From positions 937-64,936 of the IMG/VR virus record IMGVR_UViG_3300044630_000587: a stretch of DNA of 64,000 nt; one strand, written 5' to 3'. The notes beneath the pieces were generated by a model. The model saw nothing but the letters and a program-made list of their open reading frames with translations. It did not search any database and was not told where the DNA came from. The DNA comes from a virus (taxonomy: Duplodnaviria; Caudoviricetes). Of the stretch, positions 5,997 to 22,800 are shown piece after piece. Both the position numbers and the translations under genes were made by a program. Within the stretch, counting starts at the first letter, position 1; each line of letters opens with the position of its first letter.

Positions 5997-6416
5997 ATGC
6001 GTGGATACATGAGTCCCCAAGCACAAAAGGAAAAGTCGCTATACCTTAGCTTCTTTACCGATCTATCGTGGGTGTATATGGATAGGGCTAAACAGAATAT
6101 TAGTGCGCCCGAAGAAATGATTTTGATGTATATTGAAAAGGTCAAGGAAGAACCTGTCTATAGAATAGTTATCCATGACGATGGTATGGTAGAAACCGCT
6201 TGCTATGAGATGTTGGATGCGTTTGACCCTGAGTTAAATAATTCTTATAAAAGTGTTGACGAATTACCAAATTGGGTGCAAGATAAACTCGCTGTACTAA
6301 TGCTACTTGACCACAAGAAAGTTAATGAAGAAGTCAAGGGTGTTGGTAGGCGGATAAATGAAAGAACGTATTGGGTGTTTAAGGGAGAACTAGGTGGCAA
6401 CGACCCCCGAAGGTAA
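5997..6416 (+). CDS. hypothetical protein
   Basis: GAGG SD before ATG 5997; LPNWVQDKLAVL...GVGRRI resembles the C-terminus of the preceding protein (LPQDIAEQVSVL...GVGMKI). Confidence 0.75.
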   Translation: MRGYMSPQAQKEKSLYLSFFTDLSWVYMDRAKQNISAPEEMILMYIEKVKEEPVYRIVIHDDGMVETACYEMLDAFDPELNNSYKSVDELPNWVQDKLAVLMLLDHKKVNEEVKGVGRRINERTYWVFKGELGGNDPRR

Positions 6417-6726
6417 AGTTAAGAAGTCGGTTCGCCAAGTCCTTGATGGGCTTGGTGCTTACTATGTGATGCCAGTTACAGGCGGATATGGTAGGCAAGG
6501 CGCACCTGACTTTTTAGTTTGCATCCAAGGTAAATTTTTCGGCATTGAAACTAAGGCTGGAAAGGGGAAGCTAACCCTCTTGCAAGAAATGAATCTTAAA
6601 AAGATTATCGAATCAGGCGGAGTAGCTTTAGTAGTAAGGGAAGGTGACGTAAAGTATCTACCCTCTTTATTAACAACAGGAGAAAGTAACTATGAAGAAG
6701 CAATCAGCAACAAAACAAATTCTTAA
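6394..6726 (+). CDS. VRR-NUC / PD-(D/E)XK Holliday-junction-resolvase-like nuclease
   Basis: TPEGKVK...GAPDFL...IETKAG...LTLLQ motif. Confidence 0.85.
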   Translation: MATTPEGKVKKSVRQVLDGLGAYYVMPVTGGYGRQGAPDFLVCIQGKFFGIETKAGKGKLTLLQEMNLKKIIESGGVALVVREGDVKYLPSLLTTGESNYEEAISNKTNS

Positions 6727-7129
6727 TCTATTAAATACCAAGGGTGGTTATAAACCCAAAGATTTAATCAAAGAACTTAAACTACCAGCAAGTAACATCT
6801 ACGCTGGCTTGGCATACTTGCATAAGAAAAAGAAGATCGCCAAAGAAGAAGATGGTGTGTACATTACACAATCATTGCAGATGCCTTTGTACAAAGAGAA
6901 GAAAGCAGTGAGTAGCCGAGCGACTACAAATAAAGTAGCACTAGATAACACCAAGTACATTCGTTCACTTGAAACACAAGTGCATACGTTAGAGAAATTG
7001 CACGACGGGTGGCGACAGAACTACAAGAAACTCGAAGCCGATTACACCCAAGCTAAGATCATGTACCTAAATAGCCAAGCAGTAGTAACGTACTTGGAAG
7101 AGAAGGTTGCTCAACTTATCAAGGGGTAA
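6692..7129 (+). CDS. putative winged-HTH DNA-binding protein with coiled-coil tail
   Basis: QILNLL...PKDLIKELKLPASNIYAGLAYL pattern; AACAGGAG SD. Confidence 0.55.
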   Translation: MKKQSATKQILNLLNTKGGYKPKDLIKELKLPASNIYAGLAYLHKKKKIAKEEDGVYITQSLQMPLYKEKKAVSSRATTNKVALDNTKYIRSLETQVHTLEKLHDGWRQNYKKLEADYTQAKIMYLNSQAVVTYLEEKVAQLIKG

Positions 7130-7132
7130 GTC

Positions 7133-7423
7133 ATGAACAAGTGGACTAAAGAAAACTTTGAAATCTACGATGCTCAAAACCCTGCCATTTGGGATATGTT
7201 TAAGGTGTTCTCTTTACAAGTAGCCCGTAAACGAAAATACTTTTCAGCTAAATGTGTATTCCATCGTATACGTTGGGAAACAACTATTGGCAACAAGGGG
7301 GACTTCAAGATAGATGATGGTTGGATTAGTCACTACGCTAGGAAGTTTGCTAAAGAGTTCCCTGAGTATGAAGATTTATTTAAGTTTAGAACCCGTAAAG
7401 ATACTTACCACGAAGTAGATTGA
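7133..7423 (+). CDS. hypothetical phage protein
   Basis: 96-aa ORF, NPAIW...RIRWET...HYARKF. Confidence 0.7.
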   Translation: MNKWTKENFEIYDAQNPAIWDMFKVFSLQVARKRKYFSAKCVFHRIRWETTIGNKGDFKIDDGWISHYARKFAKEFPEYEDLFKFRTRKDTYHEVD

Positions 7424-7448
7424 CCAATAAGAAACCAAGGAGTATTAA

Positions 7449-8222
7449 ATGTTAGAAAATGTAGAAGCAGTAGAAGTTAAAAAACCAGCTAAGTTATTTG
7501 TAGCTACACCAATGTACGGCGGTTTATGTACTGGTGGGTACACCATGGGGGTTCTTAACTGTGTGCAGACGTTTGCACCACGAGGTATTCAGATGTACTA
7601 CTCCTACATGATGAATGAGTCTTTGATTACTCGTGCTCGTAACGGCATGGCATATGACTTTATGCAGTCGGATGCTACACACCTGATGTTTATTGATGCA
7701 GACATTAGCTTTGACCCAAGGGACATCTTGCGTATGGTTGATGCGGACAAAGATATTATCTGCGGACTGTACCCAAAGAAAGAAATTAACTGGCAGTTAG
7801 TATCTGATGCGGTTAAGAAGGGTGTGGACTATAAAGACTTGCCTAACTACACAGGGTCATTCGTGGTAAACCTAGTGGGTGGTGCGCTTGAAACTACTGG
7901 CGACATAAACACCCCGATGGAGATTGACAACGGCGGTACAGGATTCATGCTGATTAAGCGTGAGGTATTTGATAAGTTAAAACCAACTGTGCCGAAGTAC
8001 ACAAACGACATGATTCTGATTGTGGACAAGAACCCAGTTAAGAAAATCATTGACGAGTACTTTGCTACTAGCATTGACGAAACATCTAATCGTTTGTTAT
8101 CAGAGGACTACCACTTCTGCAAGATTGCACGACAAGCTGGCTTCAAAGTATATGCCGCACCTTGGGCAAATCTAACCCATAGCGGAACGTATAACTTTAG
8201 TGGTACTTTGCCAAGAGGTTAA
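7449..8222 (+). CDS. GT-A fold glycosyltransferase-like protein
   Basis: VATPMYGG, ESLITRARN, FIDADI (DxD), GTGFMLIKR, SEDYHFC. Confidence 0.8.
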   Translation: MLENVEAVEVKKPAKLFVATPMYGGLCTGGYTMGVLNCVQTFAPRGIQMYYSYMMNESLITRARNGMAYDFMQSDATHLMFIDADISFDPRDILRMVDADKDIICGLYPKKEINWQLVSDAVKKGVDYKDLPNYTGSFVVNLVGGALETTGDINTPMEIDNGGTGFMLIKREVFDKLKPTVPKYTNDMILIVDKNPVKKIIDEYFATSIDETSNRLLSEDYHFCKIARQAGFKVYAAPWANLTHSGTYNFSGTLPRG

Positions 8223-8223
8223 T

Positions 8224-8322
8224 GTGAACCCACAACTGCAAGCTATATTGCATAACATCTTCACCCGCCTCAAAGCATTAGAGGATGCGGTGGAGGAGTT
8301 AAAAAAGGAGATGAATAAATGA
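8224..8322 (+). CDS. 32-aa coiled-coil peptide (not in ORF track)
   Basis: GAGG SD, GTG start, fills the gap exactly and its TGA overlaps ATG 8319. Confidence 0.5.
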   Translation: MNPQLQAILHNIFTRLKALEDAVEELKKEMNK

Positions 8323-9050
8323 TACCGAACTGTGAATTAGTTAAAGTAGATGGCACACAGTTTCTTGTATTCAAAGGGCAGGATTTAATATCAAACCACT
8401 TGAAGAAAGAACTGTATGAGAATGACATCCATCAGCTTGCGTTAAAGATACTAATGGGTAAGCCTGATGGAGTAGTGCTAGACATTGGTGCGAACCTAGG
8501 TACGTTCTGTGTACCACTTGCACGAAAGACCCCTAAGCTGAAGTTCCATGCGTTTGAACCACAACGGATAATTTACTATCAGTTATGCGCCAATACGATT
8601 ATTAACGGGCTGTATAACATCGAGTGCCATCATTTTGGGCTATCAAACGACCGTAATGTTTTGCTGTTAGATGTGCCTGACTACGCTACCGAAACAAACA
8701 TCGGTGCGTTTAGTATTGATAAGGAAGTTCGTAAGAATGAGTACGAATGTAAGACAACGAGTACTAAAGAAGCTATAACTATTTTCCCGTTGGATGAGGG
8801 GGGATATAAGAACGTACGGCTAATCAAGATTGATGTAGAGGGTCATGAGTTAGAGGTGTTGCAGGGTGGTATCGAAACAATCAAGCGCAACAACTACCCA
8901 CCGATTATCTTTGAAGCGTGGACATGGAAGCCTTGGTATCAGGAGAAGCGTAAAGCGTTGTTCGATTACCTAGAAGGTCATGGATACGAGATTACAGAAC
9001 TAGGTCAAAACAACTTAGCACGACACCCTAAACACGAGGAAATGAAATGA
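8319..9050 (+). CDS. FkbM-family SAM-dependent methyltransferase
   Basis: VLDIGANLG, AFEP, IKIDVEGHELEVLQG. Confidence 0.9.
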   Translation: MIPNCELVKVDGTQFLVFKGQDLISNHLKKELYENDIHQLALKILMGKPDGVVLDIGANLGTFCVPLARKTPKLKFHAFEPQRIIYYQLCANTIINGLYNIECHHFGLSNDRNVLLLDVPDYATETNIGAFSIDKEVRKNEYECKTTSTKEAITIFPLDEGGYKNVRLIKIDVEGHELEVLQGGIETIKRNNYPPIIFEAWTWKPWYQEKRKALFDYLEGHGYEITELGQNNLARHPKHEEMK

Positions 9051-9244
9051 ACGACCAAGACTTGAGAGATTGCTTTGCGATGTTTGCGATGGTGGGTTTG
9101 TTTATGAAAGGTATTGGGTTAGATGATGAAGGCGCTAGACAGTGCTGGGATGCGGCTGACCGAATGCTCGAAGCCCGTAACAAAGTAGAAGATGACGGTG
9201 GTATTACCACAATTAAAAAGAGGAAGTATGTTAGAAAAGATTGA
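9047..9244 (+). CDS. small hypothetical phage protein
   Basis: LRDCFA...ADRMLEAR motif; GAGG SD; ATGA coupling. Confidence 0.75.
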   Translation: MNDQDLRDCFAMFAMVGLFMKGIGLDDEGARQCWDAADRMLEARNKVEDDGGITTIKKRKYVRKD

Positions 9245-9407
9245 TGGCAATAGGGATAAGCGTTTCTGTACAAGTTGTCAGACCATGCGACCAGCAGAGT
9301 ACGGCAAGATGTTGGAAGGAAAAATTAACAGGTGGCAGTGTACGGCTTGCGCCGAAAGAAGAAGTAAGCCACTGTACGCTAAGAAAAAAGGAGAGGGCGA
9401 TGCGTAA
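9228..9407 (+). CDS. zinc-ribbon protein
   Basis: CTSC...WQCTAC; GAGGA SD before ATG 9228. Confidence 0.7.
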   Translation: MLEKIDGNRDKRFCTSCQTMRPAEYGKMLEGKINRWQCTACAERRSKPLYAKKKGEGDA

Positions 9408-9711
9408 ATTATTAGGAACACTACTAGGTATATTTACTGTTGGTATATGTAGTGCGCAGATGGTAACGTATTTGGATGCGAATGGTAAACCGTTTATGTA
9501 CTCCAATAAGGTCGGTGGTCAGACTGTGTACATGGATCAGAACGGTAAACCTATTGCGTATCAGATGCCCTCAATGCCATCTGGCCCCCGCATTGATCCG
9601 ATTAACACACCATCATTTGTTTTTCCTATGATAAGCCCATCGCTTCCTGGCAGCGGAGCGATAACACCACTAGCCCCTTTACCCGAACTTGCACCTTTTA
9701 GAGGATTTTGA
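9400..9711 (+). CDS. secreted or periplasmic protein with signal peptide and Pro-rich tail
   Basis: MRKLLGTLLGIFTVGICSAQ signal-like N-terminus; two YxDxNGKP repeats. Confidence 0.65.
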   Translation: MRKLLGTLLGIFTVGICSAQMVTYLDANGKPFMYSNKVGGQTVYMDQNGKPIAYQMPSMPSGPRIDPINTPSFVFPMISPSLPGSGAITPLAPLPELAPFRGF

Positions 9712-9712
9712 A

Positions 9713-9901
9713 ATGACGACATTTACAACAGAAGACCGTGTTAACGCAGTAGTTAATGTAGAGCCAATCCCATTTGCGGGATTAGTGCAGTTACAAGACA
9801 AAGAAGATACAGAGCAGATGTTGCGTGCCCAGCTTGCCATTGTGCAAGCCGAGTGCCAGCGATTAAAAAAGAAACTAATGGAGCATGGAATAAATGACTG
9901 A
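9713..9901 (+). CDS. small hypothetical protein (MTTFTTEDR...)
   Basis: GAGG SD before ATG 9713; coiled-coil C-terminus. Confidence 0.65.
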   Translation: MTTFTTEDRVNAVVNVEPIPFAGLVQLQDKEDTEQMLRAQLAIVQAECQRLKKKLMEHGIND

Positions 9902-10076
9902 GGTAACAGAAGTAGAAATTAAAGAAACCCTATTTAATATCGGCAAACTTGCTGGAAGAATAAGTAGTGACGAGGGCAAGCGTCTGCTAATGCTTATGGA
10001 AACGGTGGTAGGGTATATGAACCAATTAGAAAAGCAGTTAAACAAAGATGACTTTGACATGGATGGTCGTTGCTGA
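9894..10076 (+). CDS. small hypothetical protein
   Basis: 60 aa, overlaps its neighbours in operon order. Confidence 0.6.
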   Translation: MTEVTEVEIKETLFNIGKLAGRISSDEGKRLLMLMETVVGYMNQLEKQLNKDDFDMDGRC

Positions 10077-11908
10077 TGAACCTAATAACGATTGACTTTG
10101 AAACCTTTTATGAGAAGTCTACCTTTAGCTTATCGAAGCTGACTACCGAGGAGTATGTTCGGGATGATCGCTTTGAGGTGATTGGTGTAGCCGTTAAGGT
10201 TAATGATGGTGAGACCGAGTGGGCGAGTGGTACACACGAACAGCTTAAGAATTGGCTCAAGGGATTTGACTGGGCGAACTCAATGGCGATTGCACACAAC
10301 ATGATGTTTGACGGATTCATTCTGTCAGAACGGTTTGGCATATTCCCTAAAGTCTATGCAGATACCCTGTCTATGGGTCGAGCCATTCATGGTGTCGAAG
10401 TTGGCGGTAGCCTAGCGGTGCTTGCGCAACGATACAACCTAGGTGTTAAGGGTGACGAGGTTATCGCCGCTTCAGGAAAAAACCGAGTGGACTTCACAGA
10501 CGAAGACCTTGATAGGTACGGCGACTACTGCGTGAACGACGTAGAACTAACCTATAAGTTGTTCAGTGCGATGATTAAGAAGGGCTTTCCGAAGACCGAG
10601 ATGAAGTTGATTGACTTGACTACTCGTATGTTCACACGACCCCTGCTTGATCTAAACCTGAACCTGTTGGAGATGCACCTAGCAGATATTAAGGAGAAGA
10701 AGGATAACCTGCTGATTCTTGCAAACATTGAGGACAAGGGCGAACTCGCTTCAAACCCGAAGTTTGCTGAGTTATTAAAGCAGTTCAATGTACCTGTGCC
10801 GATGAAGATTAGCCCGACTACGGGTAAAGAAACATTTGCGTTGTCTAAGAACGACGAGGAGTTCAAGGCTTTGGCTGAACATCCTGATGTACGGGTACAG
10901 GCTTTAGTTGCGGCGAGGCTGGGTACAAAATCAACCCTTGAAGAAACTAGGACAGAGCGATTCATCGGAATCGCCAAGCGAGGACTGATGCCAGTTCCCT
11001 TAAAATACTATGCGGCGCACACAGGACGGTGGGGTGGTAGTGATTCCCTAAACTTGCAGAACTTGCCAAGCCGAGGGGACAACGCAGGGAAGTTAAAGAA
11101 GGCTATTGTTGCACCCGAAGGCTACTCGGTTATCGATGCCGATTCGAGTCAGATTGAAGCACGGGTCTTAGCGTGGCTGGCTGGTCAAAACGATTTAGTT
11201 GAAGCGTTTGCGAAAGGTGAAGATGTATACAAGATCATGGCATCAGCTATCTATGGTAAGAGCGAAGCAGAAGTTTCAAAGGAAGAACGATTTGTGGGTA
11301 AGACGACTATCCTTGGGGCTGGCTACGGCATGGGCTCGCAGAAATTCAGGGCACAGCTTAAAACGTTCGGGGCTGAAATTAGTGAAGACGAAGCACGGCA
11401 TATCATTCAAATCTATCGGGAAACTTATCCGAGTATCGTAGGACTATGGCGACAAGCGCAGTTGGCGCTGGAAGCAATAAGCAAGGGCTACACAACATCT
11501 TTGGGTAAGGCGGGTGTACTTGGTATCGAGCCTAACGAGAAAGGTATCAGACTACCGAGTGGCTTACTGATGCGGTACGACCAGCTTGTTGCGGTGCGAG
11601 ATGAGAAGGGTATGCAGTACCAGTACAAGACTCGCTATGGTTGGAATAAAATCTACGGCGGTAAAGTTATCGAGAACGTATGCCAAGCTATCGCTCGTTG
11701 CATCATTGGTGAGCAGATGATTAAGATTGCCAAGCGTTACGATGTTGTACTAACAGTACACGATGCGATTGCCTGTGTAGTAAAAGACGAAGAAGTAAAA
11801 GAAGCCCAAGCCTACATTGAAGAGTGCATGAAGTGGACACCTGAGTGGGCAAATGGATTACCAGTAAGTTGTGAATCAGGATACGGAAAGAGTTATGGAG
11901 ATTGCTAA
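10076..11908 (+). CDS. polA: family A DNA polymerase with 3'-5' exonuclease
   Basis: Exo I IDFET, exo II AHN..FD, exo III Y...D; HTGRWGG, NLQNLP, motif A DSSQIEAR, motif B RFVGKTTILGAGYG, motif C TVHDA. Confidence 0.95.
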   Translation: MNLITIDFETFYEKSTFSLSKLTTEEYVRDDRFEVIGVAVKVNDGETEWASGTHEQLKNWLKGFDWANSMAIAHNMMFDGFILSERFGIFPKVYADTLSMGRAIHGVEVGGSLAVLAQRYNLGVKGDEVIAASGKNRVDFTDEDLDRYGDYCVNDVELTYKLFSAMIKKGFPKTEMKLIDLTTRMFTRPLLDLNLNLLEMHLADIKEKKDNLLILANIEDKGELASNPKFAELLKQFNVPVPMKISPTTGKETFALSKNDEEFKALAEHPDVRVQALVAARLGTKSTLEETRTERFIGIAKRGLMPVPLKYYAAHTGRWGGSDSLNLQNLPSRGDNAGKLKKAIVAPEGYSVIDADSSQIEARVLAWLAGQNDLVEAFAKGEDVYKIMASAIYGKSEAEVSKEERFVGKTTILGAGYGMGSQKFRAQLKTFGAEISEDEARHIIQIYRETYPSIVGLWRQAQLALEAISKGYTTSLGKAGVLGIEPNEKGIRLPSGLLMRYDQLVAVRDEKGMQYQYKTRYGWNKIYGGKVIENVCQAIARCIIGEQMIKIAKRYDVVLTVHDAIACVVKDEEVKEAQAYIEECMKWTPEWANGLPVSCESGYGKSYGDC

Positions 11909-12083
11909 AGTTGATTATTCCCCAATGTATTTACACGCATTAAAAGAAATCAGGATGGCACACGATGCCTTGGTGTCAAACAAGTTTCAAGCGGCTTATG
12001 ACCACTGTATGAATGCACAGGCTGAGATGAGGCTAATGACAGGCGCAGTTAAGACATGGATACAAATTGAGGACACGGAATGA
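11895..12083 (+). CDS. small hypothetical protein
   Basis: Start 11895 (MEIAKVDY), coupled to the next gene. Confidence 0.6.
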   Translation: MEIAKVDYSPMYLHALKEIRMAHDALVSNKFQAAYDHCMNAQAEMRLMTGAVKTWIQIEDTE

Positions 12084-12286
12084 ACGACCCAGTAAATCAC
12101 CCGAAGCATTACACTGACCACCCTAGCGGTATCGAGTGCATACAGATTACAGAACACATGGGGTTCAATCTAGGTAATGCGCTCAAGTACATTTGGCGAT
12201 GTGACCTTAAAAAGGATGCCGTTGAGGACTTGTGTAAAGCCCGTTGGTACATTGATCGTGAAATTGCTAAGAGAACTAAACAATGA
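12080..12286 (+). CDS. DUF3310 (SaV / T7 gp1.7-like) protein
   Basis: DPVNHPKHY...IECI...GNALKYIWR...KARWY. Confidence 0.9.
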   Translation: MNDPVNHPKHYTDHPSGIECIQITEHMGFNLGNALKYIWRCDLKKDAVEDLCKARWYIDREIAKRTKQ

Positions 12287-12951
12287 CTAAACCTATCTCA
12301 TGGTCGTACTCCAGCATTAAGTTGTTTGACCAATGCCCTAAGAAGTACTATCACTTACGGGTTATCAAAGACGTTAAAGAACCACCGACGGACGCAATTA
12401 CGTATGGCAAGGAGTTCCATGAAGCGGCTGAGTTATACATCAGAGATGGTAAACCTATACCCCCACAGTTTGCCTTTGCTAAAAACGCACTGGATAACCT
12501 TAAGCAGTTAAAGGGTGAGAAGTTATGCGAACTTGAGATGGGTTTGACCGAGAACTTAGAGCCATGTGGGTTCAAAGACCCTAACGTGTGGTGGCGAGGG
12601 GTAGCCGACCTAGCCATCATTGACGGCACAAAGGGTAGATGCCTAGATTACAAGACAGGAAAGTCTGCCAAGTATGCCGATACTGACCAGCTAGAACTGA
12701 TGGCACTAGCCATGTTTAAGCACTTCCCACAGCTAACCGAGGTGCAAGGAGCCCTGTTTTTTGTCATCAGCAAGAACTTCATAAAGGACTCGTACAAGGC
12801 TGAAAAACAGGATAAGATGTGGACTAAATGGTTGGCAGAGTACAGCAAGATGAAGATGGCTTACGAAAACGATGTATGGAATCCTCGCCCTTCAGGATTG
12901 TGCAAAAAACACTGCCTAGTTATGGAATGCCCGCACAATGGAAGGAACTAA
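12283..12951 (+). CDS. PD-(D/E)XK exonuclease (Cas4/RecB-like)
   Basis: WSYSS...CPKKY, G..FH, D...DYKTG, QL..MA, C-terminal C..HC....CPH cluster. Confidence 0.9.
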   Translation: MTKPISWSYSSIKLFDQCPKKYYHLRVIKDVKEPPTDAITYGKEFHEAAELYIRDGKPIPPQFAFAKNALDNLKQLKGEKLCELEMGLTENLEPCGFKDPNVWWRGVADLAIIDGTKGRCLDYKTGKSAKYADTDQLELMALAMFKHFPQLTEVQGALFFVISKNFIKDSYKAEKQDKMWTKWLAEYSKMKMAYENDVWNPRPSGLCKKHCLVMECPHNGRN

Positions 12952-12953
12952 TA

Positions 12954-13268
12954 ATGCCCTACGTTAATAAACCAAGACCGTACGATAAAGAGTACGACCA
13001 ACAAAAAGCGAGAGGTGAACTACCTAGTCGCATGGAACGTCAACGTGCTCGTCGCAAGATAGACAAGACAGGCAAAGACGCAAACAAAAACGGTGTAGCC
13101 GATAAGCGTGAAGGTAAGGATGTAGCGCACGTCAAAGCGTTGTCTAAAGGTGGTAGTAATAAACACGGTGTTCGTATTGAGTCGCCGTCAAAGAATCGTT
13201 CGTTCAAGCGGGATTCAAAAAGTAATTTAGTTTCAGAAGTAAGTAAAAAAGAAAGAAAAAAGGCTTGA
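12954..13268 (+). CDS. small basic HNH-like protein
   Basis: GKDVAHVKALSKGGSN...NRS; start at 12954 after AAGGA SD. Confidence 0.65.
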   Translation: MPYVNKPRPYDKEYDQQKARGELPSRMERQRARRKIDKTGKDANKNGVADKREGKDVAHVKALSKGGSNKHGVRIESPSKNRSFKRDSKSNLVSEVSKKERKKA

Positions 13269-13292
13269 ACTTTTCTGAAATTGTTGTAATAT
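13265..13292 (+). promoter_or_regulatory. possible sigma70 promoter upstream of the structured RNA and helicase
   Basis: TTGAAC-N16-TAATAT. Confidence 0.45.
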
Positions 13293-13312
13293 AAAAGTTA
13301 CTAGTTTTACAA

Positions 13313-13455
13313 GATGCAAGCGTAAGGTATGAGTGGCGAACATCACGGTTTCATTTCCGTATAAACCATACCAGTCAGCACCATTTCATTTCCTGTGGGG
13401 AACTGACAAACTCGATAGAGCATAGTGGACACCACTTATGCTCTATTTACGCATC
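13313..13455 (+). ncRNA. putative four-way-junction structured RNA with two UUUCAUUUCC loops
   Basis: GCGTAA(13320-25)/TTACGC(13447-52) closes three stems: GGTATG/CATACC, GTCAG/CTGAC and ATAGAGCATA-GTGG/CCAC-TATGCTCTAT. Confidence 0.65.
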
Positions 13456-13468
13456 ACTGGAGAAATAG

Positions 13469-15007
13469 TTGCAAATAATAAATAATAAAATTCTGTTGTT
13501 AAATCTGCGTAACCCTAACAAAGTTACAACGGTAATACCAAAGAGTAAACAACTTGAGGGGAATCAGGTCGCCGTTAACTGGGGCCTAGACGAAGCTCGC
13601 ATACTTAAGAATCTACAAATAAAAAACATCCCATCACCAATTATGGGGCATTACACTTGGCCTGGATTACATAAACCGTTTGACCATCAAAAAACTACCG
13701 CTTCTTTCCTAACCCTACACCCCCGTGCCTTCTGCCTTAACGAGCAGGGTACTGGCAAAACAGGCTCGGTTATATGGGCGGCTGATTACCTAATGAAGAT
13801 TGGGCGACTCAAGCGTGTACTGGTTATCTGCCCCTTATCTATTATGGATTCTGCTTGGCGGGCAGACCTATTTAAGTTTGCCATGCACCGCAAAGTAGAT
13901 ATTGCGTATGGCAGCAAGGAAAAACGGATTCGCATAATTAACTCAGACGCTGAGTTTGTCATTATTAACTATGATGGGGTTGAGATTGTGCAAGAGGAGA
14001 TAGCTAACGGGGGCTTTGACCTAGTAGTTATTGACGAAGCTAACGCATACAAGAATGCCCAGACGACTCGTTGGAAGACACTCAATAAGATATTAAAACC
14101 TGAGACATGGCTATGGATGCTAACAGGTACACCAGCCGCCCAATCCCCTGTGGATGCCTATGGTTTGGCTAAGTTGGTTAGCCCACATAATGTGCCTAGG
14201 TTTTACTCGGCTTTCAAAGACATGGTGATGTACAAGGTATCGCAGTTCCGCTGGGTAAACAGACCCAATGCCGAGAAGATCGTACACGAAGCACTCCAGC
14301 CAGCCATACGGTTTACCAAGGAAGAATGTTTAGACCTGCCTGAGTTGACCTACGTAACCCGTGAAGTCGAACTTACCCCACAACAGAAGAAATACTACGA
14401 GTTGCTACGTAGCAAGTTGGTTGTGTCCGCTGTGGGAGAACAGATTACTGCGGTAAACGCTGCTGTTGGAATGAGCAAACTCCTGCAAATATCTTGTGGA
14501 GCAGTGTATTCGGATTCGGGCGAAACCCTAGAATTTGACATTAAAAACCGTTACAAGGTCATGCGGGAAGTGCTGGATGAGACCAAGCAAAAAGCCCTGA
14601 TATTCGTGCCGTTCAAGAACACCATCGAGATCCTGTCCAAGAAGCTACAAGACGACGGGTTCACAACCGAGATCATCAACGGCGACGTGCCAGCAGGTAA
14701 ACGGGCAGAAATATTTAAAGCCTTCCAAGATACACCCAACCCAAGAATTCTAATCATCCAACCCCAAGCGGCGGCTCATGGAGTCACTTTAACGGCGGCT
14801 GATACGGTTATTTGGTGGGGACCTACCCCAAGCCTAGAAACATACGCTCAAGCCAATGCAAGGGCGCATAGGGCGGGGCAGAGGCATCCAGTTACGGTGG
14901 TGAGATTACAGGGTTCAAATGCGGAGAAACACCTATATAAAATGCTTGACAACCGTATTGACGACCATGTAAAGTTAGTTGAACTTTACAAGAATTTACT
15001 TGAATAA
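13469..15007 (+). CDS. SNF2-family (SF2) helicase
   Basis: EQGTGKT, IDEA, LTGTP, HGVTLT, QANARAHRAGQ; TTG start with GGAG SD. Confidence 0.92.
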   Translation: MQIINNKILLLNLRNPNKVTTVIPKSKQLEGNQVAVNWGLDEARILKNLQIKNIPSPIMGHYTWPGLHKPFDHQKTTASFLTLHPRAFCLNEQGTGKTGSVIWAADYLMKIGRLKRVLVICPLSIMDSAWRADLFKFAMHRKVDIAYGSKEKRIRIINSDAEFVIINYDGVEIVQEEIANGGFDLVVIDEANAYKNAQTTRWKTLNKILKPETWLWMLTGTPAAQSPVDAYGLAKLVSPHNVPRFYSAFKDMVMYKVSQFRWVNRPNAEKIVHEALQPAIRFTKEECLDLPELTYVTREVELTPQQKKYYELLRSKLVVSAVGEQITAVNAAVGMSKLLQISCGAVYSDSGETLEFDIKNRYKVMREVLDETKQKALIFVPFKNTIEILSKKLQDDGFTTEIINGDVPAGKRAEIFKAFQDTPNPRILIIQPQAAAHGVTLTAADTVIWWGPTPSLETYAQANARAHRAGQRHPVTVVRLQGSNAEKHLYKMLDNRIDDHVKLVELYKNLLE

Positions 15008-15028
15008 GTTAGAGTTTACTAGTATAGT
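15000..15028 (+). promoter_or_regulatory. sigma70-type promoter, followed by a 5' hairpin at 15037-15067
   Basis: TTGAAT-N17-TATAGT; CGATAGCG/CGTTATCG stem. Confidence 0.7.
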
Positions 15029-15086
15029 AGTTGTACCGATAGCGAGAATAACACCAAGCCGTTATCGTTTTAAACAGGAGAATGTT

Positions 15087-15512
15087 ATGAGTGACGAAGT
15101 AGGATCACAGGCAGAAGTGCCTCTAGAAAAGCTGACTCGTATCTACATCAAGATGCGGGATAAAAAGGCTGAAGTAACCCACGAACTTGAGGAAAAGGTT
15201 TCCAAGATTGAACAGGATATGAAGACTGTGAAAACAGCCATCCTGTCTCATATGAAGGAGATTGGAGCCGAGAGTTTAAGAACTGAGGCTGGCACTGTAT
15301 ACCGTACCGTAAGGACTACGTATGCAACGTCAGACTGGGAATCCATGCACAAGTTTATTCTTGAACATGGTGTGCCAGAACTATTGGAGAAGCGTATTCA
15401 ACAAACCAATATGAAGGCATTTTTAGAAGAAAATCCTGAGATGCTTCCCCCAGGATTGAATGCGAATAGTGAATATTCAGTAACCATAAAAAGGAGCAAA
15501 AATGGTGGATGA
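15087..15512 (+). CDS. conserved phage replication-module protein (coiled coil, possibly Gam/gp157-like)
   Basis: AACAGGAGAATGTT leader; YIKMRD...RTEAGT...DW...LLEKRI...PPGL. Confidence 0.7.
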   Translation: MSDEVGSQAEVPLEKLTRIYIKMRDKKAEVTHELEEKVSKIEQDMKTVKTAILSHMKEIGAESLRTEAGTVYRTVRTTYATSDWESMHKFILEHGVPELLEKRIQQTNMKAFLEENPEMLPPGLNANSEYSVTIKRSKNGG

Positions 15513-15774
15513 AGCGTTTGTCCCGATAGAAGATGTGGCTAAGCATTTTGCTGTGTCTGTATCGACAGTCCGTGCATGGATCCGACAGAGCTTAATCCCT
15601 GCGCTAAAACTTGGCGGTGTATATCGTTTCAAGATTAGCGAAGTGGAGCAAGCCCTACGGAAACTAAACGGAGGAGAACTAGTACGAGAAGAAGCCGACG
15701 GCAGTCTAACGGTGCAAGCACCTGCAGGATCAGCCCAAATGGCTCTTAACTTTAACCCTGACGAAGATATTTAA
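15502..15774 (+). CDS. MerR/excisionase-like HTH DNA-binding protein
   Basis: IEDVAKHFAVSVSTVRAWIRQSLIPALKLGGVYRFKISEV. Confidence 0.88.
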   Translation: MVDEAFVPIEDVAKHFAVSVSTVRAWIRQSLIPALKLGGVYRFKISEVEQALRKLNGGELVREEADGSLTVQAPAGSAQMALNFNPDEDI

Positions 15775-15785
15775 GGAGAATTAGC

Positions 15786-16664
15786 ATGAGTGATTTAACT
15801 CTATTTAAAGGTGGTTTACCATCATATTTACAAACCTCAGGCGATGACGCAACCAATGCCCTAGCTGGTACAGGCGATGGTGGTTTAGGCGCTCGTCGTA
15901 TTTCCATCAAAGGCGGTGTATTCCGTGAGTTTATTGGTGGTAAAGAGTACCGTGTATCCGAAGAACGTTCTATGAACGTTGTAATTATTAAAGCTGCGCC
16001 GAAAGTATCCCGTATTTATTACGCTGGAAGTTACACAGAAGGCGAAGCAGTGTCCCCAACTTGCTGGTCATCCGACAGCCAACGTCCTGATGAAAAGGTC
16101 AAAAATAAGCAATCAGCCACCTGCTTAACTTGCCCACAAAACATCAAGGGCTCAGGTCAAGGTGATAGCCGTGCATGCCGTTATCAGCAACGCTTGGCAG
16201 TTGTGCTTGATGGTGAGATTGATAAAGGCGAAGTTTATCAGCTAGTATTGCCACCAACATCTGTGTTCGGTGATGGTGAAAAAGGTAAGCACCCTTTACA
16301 GGCATATGCTCGTCATCTGAAAAGCCACGATACCCCTATCACTGGGGTTGTTACCGAGATGCGGTTTGACACAGCAAGTCCTACACCGAAGCTGGTATTC
16401 AAGCCAGTACGTCCAGTATCTGAAGACGAGTTCAATCGTATTCAAGACTTAAAGGATTCACCCGAAGCTATTGCCGCTATCACATTGACTGTGGCACAAA
16501 CTGATGGTGTGAAGGACAAGCCAGCCGTTAAGAACGCATTAGCCGCACCAAAAGCTGAAGAAGCAGAAGCTATTGAAGAACCGAAGAAAGCTCCACCTAA
16601 GAAAGCCCCTGTGGCGAACGAGCCTAAACTAGAAGATTTAGTTGGCGAATGGGATGATGCTTAA
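15786..16664 (+). CDS. putative single-stranded DNA-binding protein
   Basis: RISIKGG.FR, PTCWS, CLTCPQN, RACR; Ala/Pro/Lys linker and acidic aromatic tail (GEWDDA); lies before the primase. Confidence 0.65.
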   Translation: MSDLTLFKGGLPSYLQTSGDDATNALAGTGDGGLGARRISIKGGVFREFIGGKEYRVSEERSMNVVIIKAAPKVSRIYYAGSYTEGEAVSPTCWSSDSQRPDEKVKNKQSATCLTCPQNIKGSGQGDSRACRYQQRLAVVLDGEIDKGEVYQLVLPPTSVFGDGEKGKHPLQAYARHLKSHDTPITGVVTEMRFDTASPTPKLVFKPVRPVSEDEFNRIQDLKDSPEAIAAITLTVAQTDGVKDKPAVKNALAAPKAEEAEAIEEPKKAPPKKAPVANEPKLEDLVGEWDDA

Positions 16665-16674
16665 ATAACGGTTT

Positions 16675-16743
16675 GGGGGAAAGCGCATTTTTAAAAACAT
16701 GCTTCACATACATGGGGCGTGAGTACCCCACCTTCAAAGGTGG
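16675..16743 (+). promoter_or_regulatory. structured leader of the primase gene
   Basis: GGGG-GAAAG-CGC...GCG-TGAGTA-CCCC stem, then CCACCTT-CA-AAGGTGG hairpin covering the SD. Confidence 0.55.
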
Positions 16744-16745
16744 CT

Positions 16746-19619
16746 ATGAACAATTTAGAATTTTTACAGCAAGTCCTCGGAGACGATGGATACTACTGCA
16801 TAGTTGGGCTAAAGAAAGACTCGGACAAGCCTGTCCAAAAGTTTTTCCAACGGCTTGAAGATGCGGTCAAAGTTGCTGAGAACTTAAAGAACGAGGGTTA
16901 TAACGCTTACTATGCGCTAGCTACGTTCAAAGACGGGAAGTCACGAAAGACGGCAAACGTACAACAACTTAGGTCGTTGTTTGTTGATCTCGACTGCGGC
17001 CCAAGCAAGCCATACAAAACACAGGCAGAAGCTCTTATAGGGCTTAAGGCTTTCTGTAAAGAAACCAAGATGCCAAGACCAACACTAGTAAATTCTGGTG
17101 GGGGTATACACGCATATTGGCCTTTGACCGAACCTGTTTCACGTGAAACATGGTTGCCTTTGGCTGAGAAGCTAAAGAAAATGTGTGACGATAATGACCT
17201 GTTTGCTGACCCAGTTGTTACTGCAGATTCGGTACGAATCCTACGAGTTCCAGGAACTTTAAACTTTAAAGATGATGTAGCTAAAGAGGTAACGTTAATC
17301 GGTAGCTCATGTAGCTCATACGAACTAGATACACTACAAGATGTTATTGGTGAACCTATATTGGTTAAACCATCCTATGTCCCACGAGGAGAAATGGATG
17401 AAGTTACCAAAGCTATTTTAGGTAACTACACGAACCGCTTTAGAACCATCATGATGAAAACTAAAGAGGGTGACGGTTGCCAGCAGTTGAAGTATATTTA
17501 TGAGAACCAAGCAACCATGTCTGAACCGATGTGGAGAGCAGGCTTATCTATTGCCAAATTTTGTATAGATGCGGACAAAGCGATTGAGAAAATATCTGAG
17601 CATCACCCCGAATATAGCCCGATGTTTGCCGATAAAAAGGTACGCAACATCAAAGGTGGTCCTTATACATGCTTGAAGTTTGAAGAATTTAACCCAGGTG
17701 GGTGCGATGGATGTCCTAATAAAGGTGTTCTAAAGTCCCCTATCGTGCTGGGTCGTGAAGTACAAGAAGCAACTGACGAAGACAATATAGTAGAAGATAG
17801 CCCAGCAGACGTAGACCAAGGGCACACACAGACATACGTTATACCGAAATACCCCGAGCCGTACTTCCGTGGCAAGAATGGTGGCATCTTTAAGCGCATC
17901 ATCAAAGAAGAAGACGAGATTGAAGTAATGATTTACCACAACGACCTGTATGTAACACGTCGTTTACTGGACTCCGATGTCGGAGAAGCCGTAGTCGTTC
18001 GATTACACCTACCAAAAGACGGTGTTAAAGAGTTCACGATTCCGCTATCTGCGGTTACATCGAAGGACGAGATACGCAAATACATGTCATCACATGGCGT
18101 AGCGGTAGTAAAGACAGACGAGATTATGTCGTACGTAACAACTTGGGTAAACCACATGCAACATAATGCCAAAGCGGACACTGCTCGTAGGCAATTCGGC
18201 TGGACTGACGATAAACACGAAGCCTTTGTATTAGGCGATAAAGAAATCCGTGCTGATCGAGTCGACCATAACCCGCCTTCTTCTGCCACCGTACAGATGT
18301 TTGAAGCCTTTAAACCAAAAGGTTCAATGGAAGTATGGAAAAAGGCTATGAATTTTTACAATCGACCTGGCATGGAGCTTCATCAGTTTGCTATCGGCTT
18401 GGGTTTTGGTTCTATATTTTCAGACTTCACTACGATTAACGGGTCTGTTCTGCACATCTTTAGCCCTGAGTCAGGTATTGGTAAAACGACATCTATGATT
18501 GCGGGGGCTAGTATATGGGGCAACCCAAACCGCCTAGTAGTAAAAGAGTCGGATACGATGGCTAGTACTATGAACCGTGCCGAGATTCAAAAGAATCTGT
18601 GCTTGTTTAGGGATGAGGTAACAAACTCAACGGCTAAGGACTTGAGCGACTTCTTATACCAATACACCTCAGGTTCACAAAGAAACCGTATGTCAGGCAG
18701 TTCTAACCTTGAGCGTACCCGTGGCGAGCCATGGAAACAAAATGCCGTAACCACAGGTAATGCCTCAATGATGGAAAAGATTGCAGTCTACAAAGCACTC
18801 CCAAAAGGCGAAGCTATGAGACTTCTTGAAGTACGTGCACGACCCGTACCTGGTTTAGAAAAAGAAGAAACAGACTTACTGAGCGAACAATTAGCTAATA
18901 ACTACGGGCATGCGTGTATACCGTACCTACAAATGATTATGTCCGATATTGTTGGGATAAAGACTTTGTACAAGGTAACTCAACAAAAACTGGATAAAGC
19001 ATGTAACTTTGCACCAGCAGACCGTTTTCATTCTGTGTTGGCAACTAACGGCATCATGGGTTTGATGATGGCTAAGAAGGCTGGCTTGGTAGATTACGAT
19101 ATTAAACCCGTAGTCCAATGGCTCAAACAAGCAGTGCTTACTTTACAAGATCAGTTTAAGTCTATGGATGTTGATGCCGAAACTACCCTAACTAACTATC
19201 TTGCTGAGAACTATAACAACGTACTACGTATTAAGAGTACAGAAGATGCACGTCATGTTGGTAAGAACGACCTAGACCACTTGATTGTTCCCGATGCGAC
19301 ACCACGAATTGCTTTGGTTGCACGGTACGAATATGACGTAAAGATGTTGTTTTTATATATGAAGCCTTTAAAAGAATGGTGTACCAAGCAACAAATCAAC
19401 TACGAGGGGTTTGTTGATTCTTTGAAACGTGGCAGAACCAAAGCCAAGATTGACAAGAAGCGTATGGGTAAGGGTACTCGCATGAGTCTGCCCTCCTCAG
19501 ATGTACTATGGGTTAACTGTGAAGGGTTCCTAGACGATGACAGAGAAGAAGAAATTGCATCCGCAGCACAACATAAAGCCGCCCTTGAAGGTGATGAGGG
19601 AAGGACAAGTCTGTCCTGA
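16746..19619 (+). CDS. primase (RepB/AEP-like) fused to DUF927 and a helicase-like ATPase
   Basis: LFVDLD, VNSGGGIHAYW, RILRVPGTLN, C..C...SPI, FGW, SGIGKTT, RDE. Confidence 0.88.
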   Translation: MNNLEFLQQVLGDDGYYCIVGLKKDSDKPVQKFFQRLEDAVKVAENLKNEGYNAYYALATFKDGKSRKTANVQQLRSLFVDLDCGPSKPYKTQAEALIGLKAFCKETKMPRPTLVNSGGGIHAYWPLTEPVSRETWLPLAEKLKKMCDDNDLFADPVVTADSVRILRVPGTLNFKDDVAKEVTLIGSSCSSYELDTLQDVIGEPILVKPSYVPRGEMDEVTKAILGNYTNRFRTIMMKTKEGDGCQQLKYIYENQATMSEPMWRAGLSIAKFCIDADKAIEKISEHHPEYSPMFADKKVRNIKGGPYTCLKFEEFNPGGCDGCPNKGVLKSPIVLGREVQEATDEDNIVEDSPADVDQGHTQTYVIPKYPEPYFRGKNGGIFKRIIKEEDEIEVMIYHNDLYVTRRLLDSDVGEAVVVRLHLPKDGVKEFTIPLSAVTSKDEIRKYMSSHGVAVVKTDEIMSYVTTWVNHMQHNAKADTARRQFGWTDDKHEAFVLGDKEIRADRVDHNPPSSATVQMFEAFKPKGSMEVWKKAMNFYNRPGMELHQFAIGLGFGSIFSDFTTINGSVLHIFSPESGIGKTTSMIAGASIWGNPNRLVVKESDTMASTMNRAEIQKNLCLFRDEVTNSTAKDLSDFLYQYTSGSQRNRMSGSSNLERTRGEPWKQNAVTTGNASMMEKIAVYKALPKGEAMRLLEVRARPVPGLEKEETDLLSEQLANNYGHACIPYLQMIMSDIVGIKTLYKVTQQKLDKACNFAPADRFHSVLATNGIMGLMMAKKAGLVDYDIKPVVQWLKQAVLTLQDQFKSMDVDAETTLTNYLAENYNNVLRIKSTEDARHVGKNDLDHLIVPDATPRIALVARYEYDVKMLFLYMKPLKEWCTKQQINYEGFVDSLKRGRTKAKIDKKRMGKGTRMSLPSSDVLWVNCEGFLDDDREEEIASAAQHKAALEGDEGRTSLS

Positions 19620-19806
19620 TGGTGTGGTTATTGACATTAACTGGGGTGCTTTTGAGGTAGGCACTTCAGTTTTTATACCTGCCGTTAACTTATCAATGTT
19701 AAAGAAACAGATGCAAACGATTGCAAAACGTAAGCAAATACAACTAAAAGGATTTGACCGAATCGAGTCTGGAAAATTAGGTATGCGTTTTTGGCGGATT
19801 CTGTAA
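19537..19806 (+). CDS. hypothetical protein at the end of the replication operon (start uncertain)
   Basis: INWGAFEVGTSVFIP...LGMRFWRI. Confidence 0.7.
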   Translation: MTEKKKLHPQHNIKPPLKVMREGQVCPDGVVIDINWGAFEVGTSVFIPAVNLSMLKKQMQTIAKRKQIQLKGFDRIESGKLGMRFWRIL

Positions 19807-19814
19807 TATACTTT

Positions 19815-19895
19815 CTAGGCAACATTCTCCTGTTGCTAGTTCTCTTAACGTGAGGAACACCCCTTGAATCCCCACCTAACCGTGGGGATTTTTTT
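19815..19895 (+). ncRNA. putative small RNA with an anti-RBS hairpin, ending in a terminator
   Basis: CTAGGCAAC-ATTCTCCT-GTTGCTAG hairpin; 19821-19834 is the exact reverse complement of AACAGGAGAATGTT at 2761 and 15073; TATACT at 19807-12. Confidence 0.6.
19867..19895 (+). terminator. rho-independent terminator at the convergence of the early and late arms
   Basis: AATCCCCAC-CTAACC-GTGGGGATT-TTTTT. Confidence 0.85.
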
Positions 19896-19896
19896 C

Positions 19897-22800
19897 CTAG
19901 TCTTCGTATTCGGCTTGGCTAGCCTTGATAGTCTCAAGACGCTTCTTGCTGTACCGCACACCGTTAACCATCTCTCTAGTAGCACGTTCTTGGGCTCTCA
20001 AAGAGTTACTTAAGATGTCTGTAATTGTGCCGCCGTTAATACCTAACTCTGGGTGTTTTTCGCCAAGATCAAGTAAATCCTCCTTAAAGCTCTCCATGCC
20101 AGCAAAGTCACCTTCACGCTTAGCAATATAGTATTTCTGTTTTAACTTACCAATTTTCTTAGTTAAGAACGTATCAATACCTTTTTCACGAGAGTTGATC
20201 TCTAACTGATTCTGGTAGTCGGCAGGTGCAAAACCAAGGAGCTGGGCAACTCCGTTGTACAAGTTAACATCCCCTGTAATTGGGTCCCCACGAAGCGTTG
20301 TAGTGCCTTCTGAAACGTATCTAAAGCTCTTTAATCCGTTGGAAATAGCTGTGGGTAGGAGTTCTTCTAAACCACGGTAGACGTTACCCTCACCTATCTT
20401 GCTATAACCACGCTGGATACGATCAGACACACCTATAACTGGACCACCAACAGCCTGTAACAACTGCTGTGTGAAAGTAGTTGCGCTACCTTTAGGAGCA
20501 TCACGAACAATCAAATCGTTTAAAGTGATACGACCAGCAATACCTAGGTTTGTCATGTACTCAAGTGGACCTTTATACAAGAAGTCGCCAAGAGCTTTTT
20601 GAGTAACTGTATCTAAGTCTTCGTCATCCTCGTCACAAAACAAGCTATAAAGCATAGACAATGCACCGAACATTGGGATACCCTGTGCACCAGCCATCAA
20701 AGCAGACATGCCTACGATACCGCCGATTTGCCTCCAAGCTGCCTTTTTAATCTCAGGAGTTTCGCCTTTGAGTGCTTCTTTAGCAGCTTTAAACAGCATG
20801 TAGTACATCGAAATACCATACCGCTTGTACATAAACAAGATCTTACCCAGTGAGCTTTGAGCAATACGTGGGGCCGAAGCTGCGGAGATACCACCGTTGG
20901 TTAACTCAGTAGTGTAGATAGCCTTGTTAGCCGCCTTAGTTTCAGCCTCTAGTTGAGACATTTTTCCAGCTTTAACGTCTTTAGCTAGCTTGTTCATCTC
21001 TAGGTTATACGCAGCTACCATAGTAACTTCACGGTTCATACGTTCACCGTGGTGCATCATCCAACCCGACATAGCATTAAACTTAGCTAGGAAGCCTGTT
21101 TTAGTATCGCCGTTGATGATTTCATAAAGCTGGGAACGATTGAACTGCCCCTGTTCGTTACCAATACGAATCAATGTAGCGTACTTCTTAGCCATTTCTG
21201 AGTCAGGTGCATAGTTAGTAAGGGAAGGCATAACCCGCATCTTGGTTCTTTTGCCATTACCACCAATAATTTCCATCTCAGTATTTGTACCGCTACCGAT
21301 AAAAACCTTAGACGCATCGCCAATAGCTCTAGCAACCTGACCTTCAGGATAGTGCGCCTTTAAATATGGGGCAACAATCATAGGGATGTTGGCGCTGTTA
21401 ACTACCATGGAAGACACGTTAAAGCCGAGAGTGTAGGTAAACGCAGCAGAAGTAAGGATACTGCCGATGTCATTTCTAGTAGGATTTAACACGTAGCCAA
21501 GGTGCTTTTTAAATTCTTCTAAATACTTAGCTTGTAAAGTGTTATCTTGGCTAGCTACTTTTGGCTCTATTACGTTACCCTGTGCATCCTTAACTTCTTT
21601 TTTACCAGCACCGAGTTCGGTAGTAAAGCGCTCCATGTCTTCAATAACACCCGACAACTTAGGGTTGTAAGCCATATTAGCTACTTGATGGGCAGTGCTA
21701 CGCATCTTGCGTTCAAACACACCAATCGTGTCTTCCATGTAACCAGCTTTGTTACCACGTTTCTGGAACGACTGGGCAAAGGCAGTCTCAGGTAAAGTTG
21801 TTAAGAACAACCGCATCATCTCATCAACAGCTGTATCAGGGACATTGTTAGTCTCCATGATATTTAAAACGCTATTAACAAATGAGCCTGACGGTGCATT
21901 ACGATAGTTGATTTCGGCAATACTTGCATATGGCTCAACCTCAGTAACACCCATAGCAGCCAAATCTTGAATACGTCTATCCCGTGCTCGTACGCTAGTA
22001 AATGCTTCGTTAGCCCGTTGCATCTGACCATTACGATCTTTGTAGTTAAAGGCTAACCACTTATCGCCTTCACGACCTAAAGCAAAATACGGATCAATCA
22101 TGCCTTGCTCAGCAAGTTTTTTCATGATGTCAGTTTTAACTTTGTTCTTAGTAACTGAATCTAGACTAGTAGCATCAATACGCTCATTGATAGCGTTCTT
22201 AATTTCTTCGTACATTTGCTTGTAGGCACCACGCATAGTGACGTACAAGTTCTGCCAAACTGTATCGAGCTTTTTATAACGGGTATTTAAATCTTTCCAA
22301 GTAGCTTCTAATGAGTTACCACTCTTGTCAAACTTATCAGCATAGGCAGACTGAGGTTTAGTCGGGTCTACTTCATTAACAGTACTATCATTAACAATGC
22401 TGTTAAACGCATCTCTTTGTTCTGGTTTAGCTGCGATAGCGTCCTTAGCCTCTTTCATAGCAGCATCTGTGCCACGAGTTAGCATATCTTGATAACCGCT
22501 ACGTTGGTTAATTAACTTATTAAACTTAGAACCTAGTCCAGGGGTATCCTGGTCTTTTAAAGGGAATACTGGATCAGCTACTTCTCCAAGAGCGTGCATT
22601 GGTAATACAGATAAGGTTGCCGATTTCGCCCAATCAGCCGAACGATCAATACCGTTGTAAAGAGCATCTTTTTGATTCTCGTTAAACACAGGCATTACAT
22701 TAACAACTTTACCTACGTTATTCCAAATAGCCTGGTTGTCCGCTACGGTTCTAACATACAACTTACCTGCATTTCTAGAGGCAGGAGATGGGGATAGCAT

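Follow-up and report, generated by a model that had tools for sequence, protein, structure and literature searches.

A candidate phage small RNA with a seed complementary to the ribosome-binding sites of several early genes of its own genome

Introduction

Temporal control in tailed phages is usually ascribed to promoters, sigma factors and a few RNA-binding proteins. In the literature covered here, phage-encoded small RNAs (sRNAs) mostly target host genes or a single immunity operon. Among the titles and abstracts considered in a full-text literature search, there was no equivalent of a phage sRNA that addresses the ribosome-binding sites (RBSs) of several early genes of its own phage. This report describes an element with the features expected of such an RNA, located between the two arms of the genome of an uncultivated tailed phage, with emphasis on its conservation, structure, putative targets and the matching of RNA and targets among related viruses.

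By analogy, the element comes closest in mechanism to c4, an RNA of the phages P1 and P7, and in function to the RegA and RegB proteins of phage T4. Loop pairing of the c4 kind also occurs in the CI RNA of the satellite phage P4. c4 is a structured antisense RNA whose loops pair in trans around the RBS of a phage mRNA and block its translation; RNA and target have changed in concert between related phages, which gives each its own specificity. In temperate phages c4 serves immunity by controlling a single operon, ant, and it is processed from the transcript that also carries its target (PMC12197685). Compared with c4, the element described here would likewise be a phage-encoded structured RNA with a loop complementary to an RBS region and with matched RNA/target differences between relatives, whereas several unlinked early/middle genes share the address and the locus is the junction of the replication and structural arms. 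It also differs from c4 in having neither sequence nor model similarity to it, the Rfam C4 family giving no match at its gathering score.

The analogy with T4 concerns function. RegA competes with the ribosome on about 30 mRNAs and RegB is an endoribonuclease that cuts the Shine-Dalgarno (SD) core of early sites with a particular purine-rich 3' flank (PMC3014915). As in those systems, a phage factor would recognize the initiation regions of a set of early mRNAs for shut-down; unlike RegA and RegB, which are proteins, the recognizing agent here would be an RNA, so that specificity would be written in base pairs and could be read from the sequence.

Two groups of cellular RNAs are also pertinent. 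The pyrimidine-rich hairpin loops of the Betaproteobacteria toxic small RNAs (RF02278) may act as anti-SD sequences. These RNAs are described as toxic in E. coli and of unknown function (PMC4603805). The element resembles them as a short terminator-ended RNA with a pyrimidine-rich hairpin loop, but they are chromosomal and lack a defined regulon, and with 17.3 bits against a gathering score of 50 the gap element is not a member of RF02278. In the icaR 3'UTR, RNAIII and the Rsa RNAs of Staphylococcus aureus, a pyrimidine-rich motif in a loop or at the 3' end pairs with SD regions; such Gram-positive anti-SD 3'UTRs and C-rich-loop sRNAs are encoded by the host and in most cases depend on the core motif only. 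Unlike the S. aureus RNAs, the RNA proposed here would be viral and its flanks would give clade-specific addressing. By the Rfam results given below, the gap element matches no RNA family of that collection.

The Phage Genome and the Junction of Its Arms

The stretch of DNA analysed (the window) covers 64,000 bases of an IMG/VR virus record that is 64,936 bases long and rated complete by CheckV. The + strand genes in positions 1-19806 have early/replication functions and encode a family A DNA polymerase, a PD-(D/E)XK exonuclease, an SNF2 helicase, a DUF927 primase-helicase, an AAA ATPase and a DUF2201 metallopeptidase/VWA pair. All genes further on, starting with the one that ends at 19897, lie on the - strand (structural arm), where the gene of a DNA-ejection protein adjoins that of the 2243-aa protein. 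No cultured phage showed DNA similarity (megablast of 2.1 kb; blastn of the 321-base gap region). Judged by the primase, the closest cultured phage is Pseudomonas phage Rollin (29.5% identity), in which the convergent genes abut without a gap and hence without an equivalent of the gap element.

The small protein encoded immediately upstream of the element (19537-19806) is kept in all relatives, with 66-91% identity. It has no Pfam or PHROG family, the Atlas assigns it to unnamed viral clusters only, and its AlphaFold model (mean pLDDT 66.7) has no PDB fold match at E <= 0.001; lacking a family or fold match, it gives no sign of being an RNA chaperone or a transcription factor. Its Atlas record begins at residue 20, which suggests a 70-aa product overlapping the stop of the primase gene.

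Some further features of the layout deserve mention. A textbook sigma-70 promoter (consensus-like -35, 17-base spacer, consensus -10) occurs at 581-609, about 50 bases upstream of the site at 648-658. A 212-base non-coding gap with several potential stems (13269-13480) lies upstream of the SNF2 helicase gene and contains, at 13285-13295, a near copy of the surroundings of the sRNA hexamer with two mismatches; the helicase-primase operon could have its promoter and leader in this gap, or the gap could hold another RNA. Two intergenic regions near the end of the window (63036-63120 and 63871-64000) share a 13-base palindromic motif beside an AT-rich -10-like sequence, and the two copies may form an operator pair.

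Table 1. Positions of the gap element, its neighbours and its putative target sites in the window
Feature	Positions	Strand	Description
Stop codon of the upstream + gene	19804-19806	+	From sequence reading
-10-like hexamer (TATACT-type)	19807-19812	+	Directly 3' of the stop codon; TAnnnT in 46/46 versions
Six-base spacer, discriminator-like	19813-19818	+	Sequence variable, differs between lineages
Hairpin 1 core	19819-19836	+	Stem 19819-19824 with 19831-19836, loop 19825-19830
Hairpin 2	19839-19858	+	Kept as structure, not as sequence
Intrinsic terminator	19866-19895	+	10-bp stem (19866-19891), 6-base loop, seven T (19889-19895)
Stop of the convergent gene	19897-19899	-	2243-aa LPD39/DarB-like protein, first gene of the - arm
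Putative target site	648-658	+	11 bases, before start 662 (297-aa protein); duplex -16.1 kcal/mol
Putative target site	2761-2774	+	14 bases, before DUF2201 metallopeptidase/VWA-like gene (2775-3947, Pfam); duplex -22.1 kcal/mol
Putative target site	4991-5002	+	12 bases, before start 5006 (329-aa protein, no Pfam/PHROG match); duplex -20.3 kcal/mol
Putative target site	6674-6684	+	11 bases, before start 6692 (145-aa protein, no family); duplex -19.0 kcal/mol
Putative target site	15073-15086	+	14 bases, before DUF7307 (Pam3 gp33-like) gene 15087-15512; duplex -21.5 kcal/mol

Anatomy and Distribution of the Gap Element

Three hairpins occupy the gap between the replication arm and the structural arm (19807-19896), the last of them an intrinsic terminator on the + strand (Table 1). 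A hairpin, a second small hairpin, a terminator and an upstream TATACT had been described there in an earlier note on this DNA, and all four were found. The loop of hairpin 1 contains an anti-SD pyrimidine run, and the target-complementary seed spans 19821-19834; in this genome the hairpin extends to a longer palindrome (19815-19839). The terminator was the top terminator-like site of the terminator scan. The + strand RNA folds at -28.8 kcal/mol (z = -4.65), and none of 200 shuffled sequences folded as well. A search of the whole window with Rfam 15 (4227 models, including C4 and RF02278) gave no match at the gathering score; the best sub-threshold scores on the gap were 18.4 bits for Hrs1 (- strand, threshold 56.4) and the RF02278 score quoted above.

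Relatives were collected from IMG/VR with the primase (26 loci) and the small upstream protein (23 loci), at 66-97% identity. A profile of five primases matched 231 stretches, and the best 80 loci of these, down to 53% identity, were retrieved. The element stands at the same place in all 23 small-protein loci and is also carried by the distant primase relatives inspected; every related IMG/VR phage with a readable gap has it (46 distinct versions, 108 loci). A gapped pattern scan of IMG/VR returned 120 rows, 14 of them with hairpin-terminator context and all 14 from relatives, whereas neither a hairpin nor a terminator accompanied the match in the other 106. A covariance model derived from 12 variants found one copy per genome in the genomes searched, and its only other match in the window (E = 0.2) is the complement of the target at 2775.

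Two minor observations were made on these relatives. Three distinct IMG/VR contigs (L047, which is the same contig as L132; L008/L037; L020) end 0, 27 and 16 bases past the T-run, which could reflect assembly breaks at the variable downstream gene or contigs derived from transcripts. In a 65-kb relative, one in-frame stop codon lies inside the primase frame (L015:6001-8895) and may be a sequencing error, a sign of a pseudogene or a case of recoding.

A Candidate Promoter at the End of the Replication Arm

The hexamer that follows the stop codon has the form TAnnnT in every one of the 46 versions, although 11 different hexamers occur, with all their differences in positions 3-5. Main-group variants have six freely varying bases between the hexamer and the conserved stem, which starts with the seventh; a single variant is offset by one base in this spacing. 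The seventh base, the predicted +1, is a purine in 45 of the 46 versions (G in 40, A in 5). A TAnnnT hexamer, six variable bases and a purine start make up the pattern of a -10 element, a discriminator and a start site, and on this basis it is probable that the element has its own promoter at the hexamer, perhaps a factor-dependent one. A TG one base upstream of the hexamer (extended -10) is present in 15 versions and absent in 31, and no -35-like hexamer was evident upstream in the gap or in the sequences of the relatives; given these two results the promoter may be weak or activator-dependent, or the hexamer may not be a promoter. The promoter-like 11-mer is not enriched elsewhere in the window, other copies at up to two mismatches numbering 11 against 25.9 expected.

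The earlier note had proposed, as one of two readings, a + strand RNA made late in the replication operon. The comparison supports the + strand; the RNA need not be only the tail of that operon, since it seems to have a -10-like element of its own.

The same data bear on the possibility that the element acts in cis only, as the 3' untranslated tail of the helicase-primase operon mRNA that folds back on RBSs of the same mRNA and never exists as a free sRNA. The element directly follows the last gene of the + arm with no terminator in between, so that operon transcripts must run through it, and in distant clades the best sites (those of the helicase, DUF7307 and the next gene) belong to the same operon and lie a few kb upstream; the want of a visible -35 agrees with this explanation as well. 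In the genome under study, in contrast, four of the five sites are 13-19 kb upstream, beyond both the non-coding gap at 13269-13480 and the separate sigma-70-type promoter at 581-609, and with this distance, gap and promoter intervening they are probably on other transcripts. Moreover, a pure 3' tail would have no need of a conserved TAnnnT, a fixed spacing and a purine at +1. A role confined to cis is consequently considered unlikely.

Conserved Structure and the Probable Functional Strand

When the 21 main-group variants were folded singly from the predicted +1, each formed hairpin 1 at its extreme 5' end as well as the terminator, and the pyrimidine core sits in the loop in the main-group variants. 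A middle hairpin was predicted in 19 of the 21, with stem sequences that differ widely between lineages. A nine-base block comprising the loop and the 3' stem side of hairpin 1 is invariant in all 21 and is the only long invariant stretch, the spacer, hairpin 2 and the terminator loop being variable; the seed is more conserved in these variants than the rest of the RNA.

Base pairing in hairpin 1 is maintained. Among the same 21 variants no pair is broken and two pairs show compensatory changes, the two gap cells in this count being a base misplaced by MAFFT, and all of the one-sided stem changes (7 of 21 rows) give G.U pairs on the + strand. In a model-fitted alignment of 38 rows, which includes one spurious target-site match and leans towards the structure of the model, 98.6% of the hairpin 1 cells are paired and three of the six pairs are compensatory, values reached by none of 500 shuffles; the stem contains 13 G.U or U.G cells in this alignment.

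The G.U pairs of the + strand correspond to A.C mismatches in the stem of the - strand, and a T-run follows the terminator stem on the + strand only. Together with the hexamer and the spacing to a purine at +1, these features of the sequence point to the + strand as the functional one.

They also weigh on the proposal that the - strand is the active one, its hairpin being produced by readthrough from the late arm and displaying an extra copy of the early RBS, either as the start of a small gene or as a decoy for a factor. The latter had been put forward in the earlier note as a readthrough decoy for a GGA-binding regulator. Covariation with the other sites would be expected of such a copy no less than of an antisense seed; the - strand folds well too (-29.5 kcal/mol, z = -3.53), and among the late genes no convincing terminator precedes the gap. 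The - strand is nevertheless considered very unlikely to be the functional one, as its stem would carry the A.C mismatches in the rows and cells counted above and the + strand is the one that fits the orientation of the T-run, of the -10-like hexamer and of the fixed spacing, which disfavours the decoy in particular. In addition, 12 of the 46 versions have no start codon 3-13 bases past the motif, and 21 have none or a frame of less than 20 codons, the frames being 0-100 codons long. A small gene on the - strand with its start in the hairpin was rejected because no reading frame is conserved among the 46 variants, a result that together with the G.U evidence also weakens the decoy idea.

Putative Target Sites in the Phage Genome

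A motif search confirmed that the 14-mer complementary to the seed is present without mismatch at the RBSs of the DUF2201 and DUF7307 genes, as previously claimed, and in reverse complement at the seed itself. Five sites occur at up to two mismatches against 0.51 expected, a number reached by none of 100 dinucleotide shuffles. In the whole 64,936-base record, the search at up to one mismatch yielded two forward copies and one reverse copy, and a reversed control pattern yielded none in either direction. The matches of 11-12 bases that the earlier note had reported at the RBSs at 648, 4991 and 6674 held up as well, with the lengths listed in Table 1. The protein starting at 662 has a weak DUF3150 match in Pfam, below the curated cut-off. 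The mini-hairpin that had been attributed to the target is present at the two exact 14-mer sites and absent at the other three, so that loop-loop kissing would be possible for at most two of the five targets. Only about six bases of the seed are in the loop, and full pairing over 11-14 bases requires opening of the stem.

The two arms of the genome were compared with respect to pairing with an 18-base seed, using start sites called by crude rules (an SD core, a start codon 4-10 bases on and an open frame of 50 codons or more). Duplexes at -15 kcal/mol or lower were obtained for 5 of 27 starts in the early arm and for 0 of 51 in the late arm (Fisher one-sided p = 0.0038). The five matched early starts pair at -16 to -22 kcal/mol and no other early start reaches -15. 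The overall shift in duplex energy between early and late starts was not significant (Mann-Whitney p = 0.067); the two distributions being alike overall, the effect lies in a discrete subset of sites. The SD cores of the late genes are equally good and their flanks are different.

Matching of Seeds and Sites among Relatives

The eight-base core of the site was counted in four further genomes that are complete or almost so. The strand of the early genes has 5-10 copies in each, and the opposite strand has one copy, the element, in three of them and two copies in the fourth. Copies outside the element are always at RBS distance from a start codon. The seeds differ between deep clades, in which the bases 3' of the pyrimidine core change and those 5' of it change or extend, and in two clades with 53% identity the pyrimidine run has shifted from hairpin 1 into the following segment. 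The flanks of early RBSs match the seed of their own clade, usually at the helicase gene, the DUF7307 orthologue and the next gene. For instance, two sites in the L232 lineage match the seed over 10-13 bases, including at least 7 bases 3' of the core that are unique to the clade, and in the L225 lineage sites and seed have both switched to an alternating purine/pyrimidine flank. Within the main group, each of the loop insertions and deletions (G002, G003, G004, G005, L204, L208 and L209) is matched by at least one site of the same genome.

The strength of this matching was assessed by permutation. With seven representatives, one per seed type, scored by the mean of the three longest matches (the clade representatives were chosen by the analyst, gene calls were crude and main-group members are not independent), the own-genome sum was 67.7 against 54.2 +/- 3.0 for permuted assignments, and the one permutation in 5040 that reaches the observed value is the true assignment itself; by duplex energy, 9 of 5040 did so. 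The own seed was strictly best in five of the seven rows, the exceptions being L222 and L233. With fourteen representatives, the bases matched 3' of the SD core numbered 75 against 47.1 +/- 4.7, a value reached by 2 of 100,000 permutations, with other seeds equal to or better than the own one in several rows and with the L204 anchor set wrongly, an error that works against the result. The DUF7307 orthologue is among the best own-genome matches in most relatives examined, and in the L033, L044 and L175 lineages its site or the loop has changed without tracking. A permutation test on this orthologue alone (0 of 20,000 reach the own-genome value) is not relied on because close relatives share both traits by descent. 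The co-variation between seed and RBS that the earlier note had suggested looking for in related phages is thus found, with the exceptions named in this paragraph.

These comparisons are relevant to a broader role of the RNA, namely that of a general anti-SD molecule directed against host mRNAs or against all translation, for which the matches to the phage's own sites would be a by-product of a common core. The core of the seed is indeed a generic anti-SD pyrimidine run, many distant variants have a second such run downstream, and the weak resemblance to the Betaproteobacteria toxic small RNA family points the same way. The matching, however, reaches 3-9 bases past the core, differs between clades and tracks the sites of the same genome, and none of the 51 late starts is matched in spite of SD cores of equal strength; there is little chance that a general activity of this sort explains the element. 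It is least credible that the motif acts as DNA, either as a protein-bound inverted repeat at the arm junction or as a reverse copy of an RBS repeat kept similar by recombination: the convergence of the arms is a plausible replication or packaging landmark and the stem in this genome extends to a longer palindrome, but only the short stem is conserved, the G.U-type changes break the symmetry of the DNA, a DNA-binding site would not need its other copies to be always at RBS distance from a start codon, and repeats of 11-14 bases are short for homogenization by recombination.

Proposed Function

The reading favoured here, and held to be likely, is that the element encodes a trans-acting + strand anti-SD sRNA that represses a regulon of the phage's own early/middle genes. 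The reading of the earlier note, in which a + strand RNA silences the translation of earlier genes, draws support from the conservation of the element, its + strand structure and the covariation of seeds with clade-specific RBS flanks. From this conservation, strand and structure, and from the complementarity and covariation, we infer that the RNA would be produced, that it would repress by pairing and that it would do so at a particular stage of infection.

According to the proposed mechanism, the gap would encode a + strand RNA of approximately 77 nt (from about 19819 to 19895), the transcription of which would start seven bases past the -10-like hexamer, possibly in addition to readthrough from the primase operon, and would end at the intrinsic terminator. 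The loop and the 3' stem half of the 5' hairpin would serve as a pyrimidine-rich seed that pairs with the SD core and flanks in a defined subset of the phage's own early/middle mRNAs. In this genome the regulon would consist of the genes starting at 662, 2775, 5006, 6692 and 15087, and in relatives it would also take in the SNF2 helicase gene and the one that follows DUF7307. A duplex of 11-14 bases, ending at the start codon or beside it, would block binding of the 30S subunit and repress translation, and decay of the paired mRNA would probably be faster. The extended RBS flanks would work as an address label that sets the regulon apart from the other early genes and from all late genes; pairing with an antisense RNA would explain why such flanks are common to several unlinked genes. 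For a conserved, terminator-ended + strand RNA with a hairpin at its 5' end, whose most constrained bases remain complementary to a shifting set of initiation regions, antisense masking of the SD core and of the sequence up to the start codon is the simplest explanation. A shut-off of early proteins at the middle/late stage would be in keeping with a promoter that lacks a -35, depends on an activator and lies at the end of the replication arm.

A further claim, for which the chances appear evenly balanced, is that the element represents a new and widespread family of phage sRNAs that is the RNA counterpart of T4 RegA/RegB. In this family a single RNA of about 77 nt, expressed from its own promoter at the arm junction, would switch off a set of early/middle genes by means of an extended RBS address, and address and seed would co-evolve into a code private to each lineage, which could insulate co-infecting relatives from one another.

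Comparative sequence by itself indicates that one sRNA addresses several early RBSs of its own phage and that, from lineage to lineage, address and seed change together. If true, a virus would offer a clear example from nature of a translational switch that is addressed by a seed and has several targets, and the oddly extended RBS flanks common to subsets of phage genes would be explained. The lineages would also provide sRNA/leader pairs that are orthogonal by nature, their seeds and sites being matched, and that are usable as regulatory parts.

Additional Complementary Segments

Three more early RBSs in this genome are complementary to parts of the RNA that follow hairpin 1, namely the 5' arm of hairpin 2 and a single-stranded stretch that precedes the terminator. 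The complementarity consists of an 11-base match at 12268-12278 before the exonuclease start at 12283, a 9-base match at 7119-7127 before 7133 and an 8-base match at 6385-6392 before 6394; by a rough estimate an 11-base match would arise by chance about 0.2 times in 20 kb, and matches of 9 bases are expected by chance. The arm of hairpin 2 or the single-stranded stretch may be a second seed. Among the relatives, a second anti-SD-like pyrimidine run stands just after hairpin 1 in L214, L217, L218, L222, L225, L226 and L227/L228, and in many main-group variants the 5' arm of hairpin 2 contains a run that resembles it.
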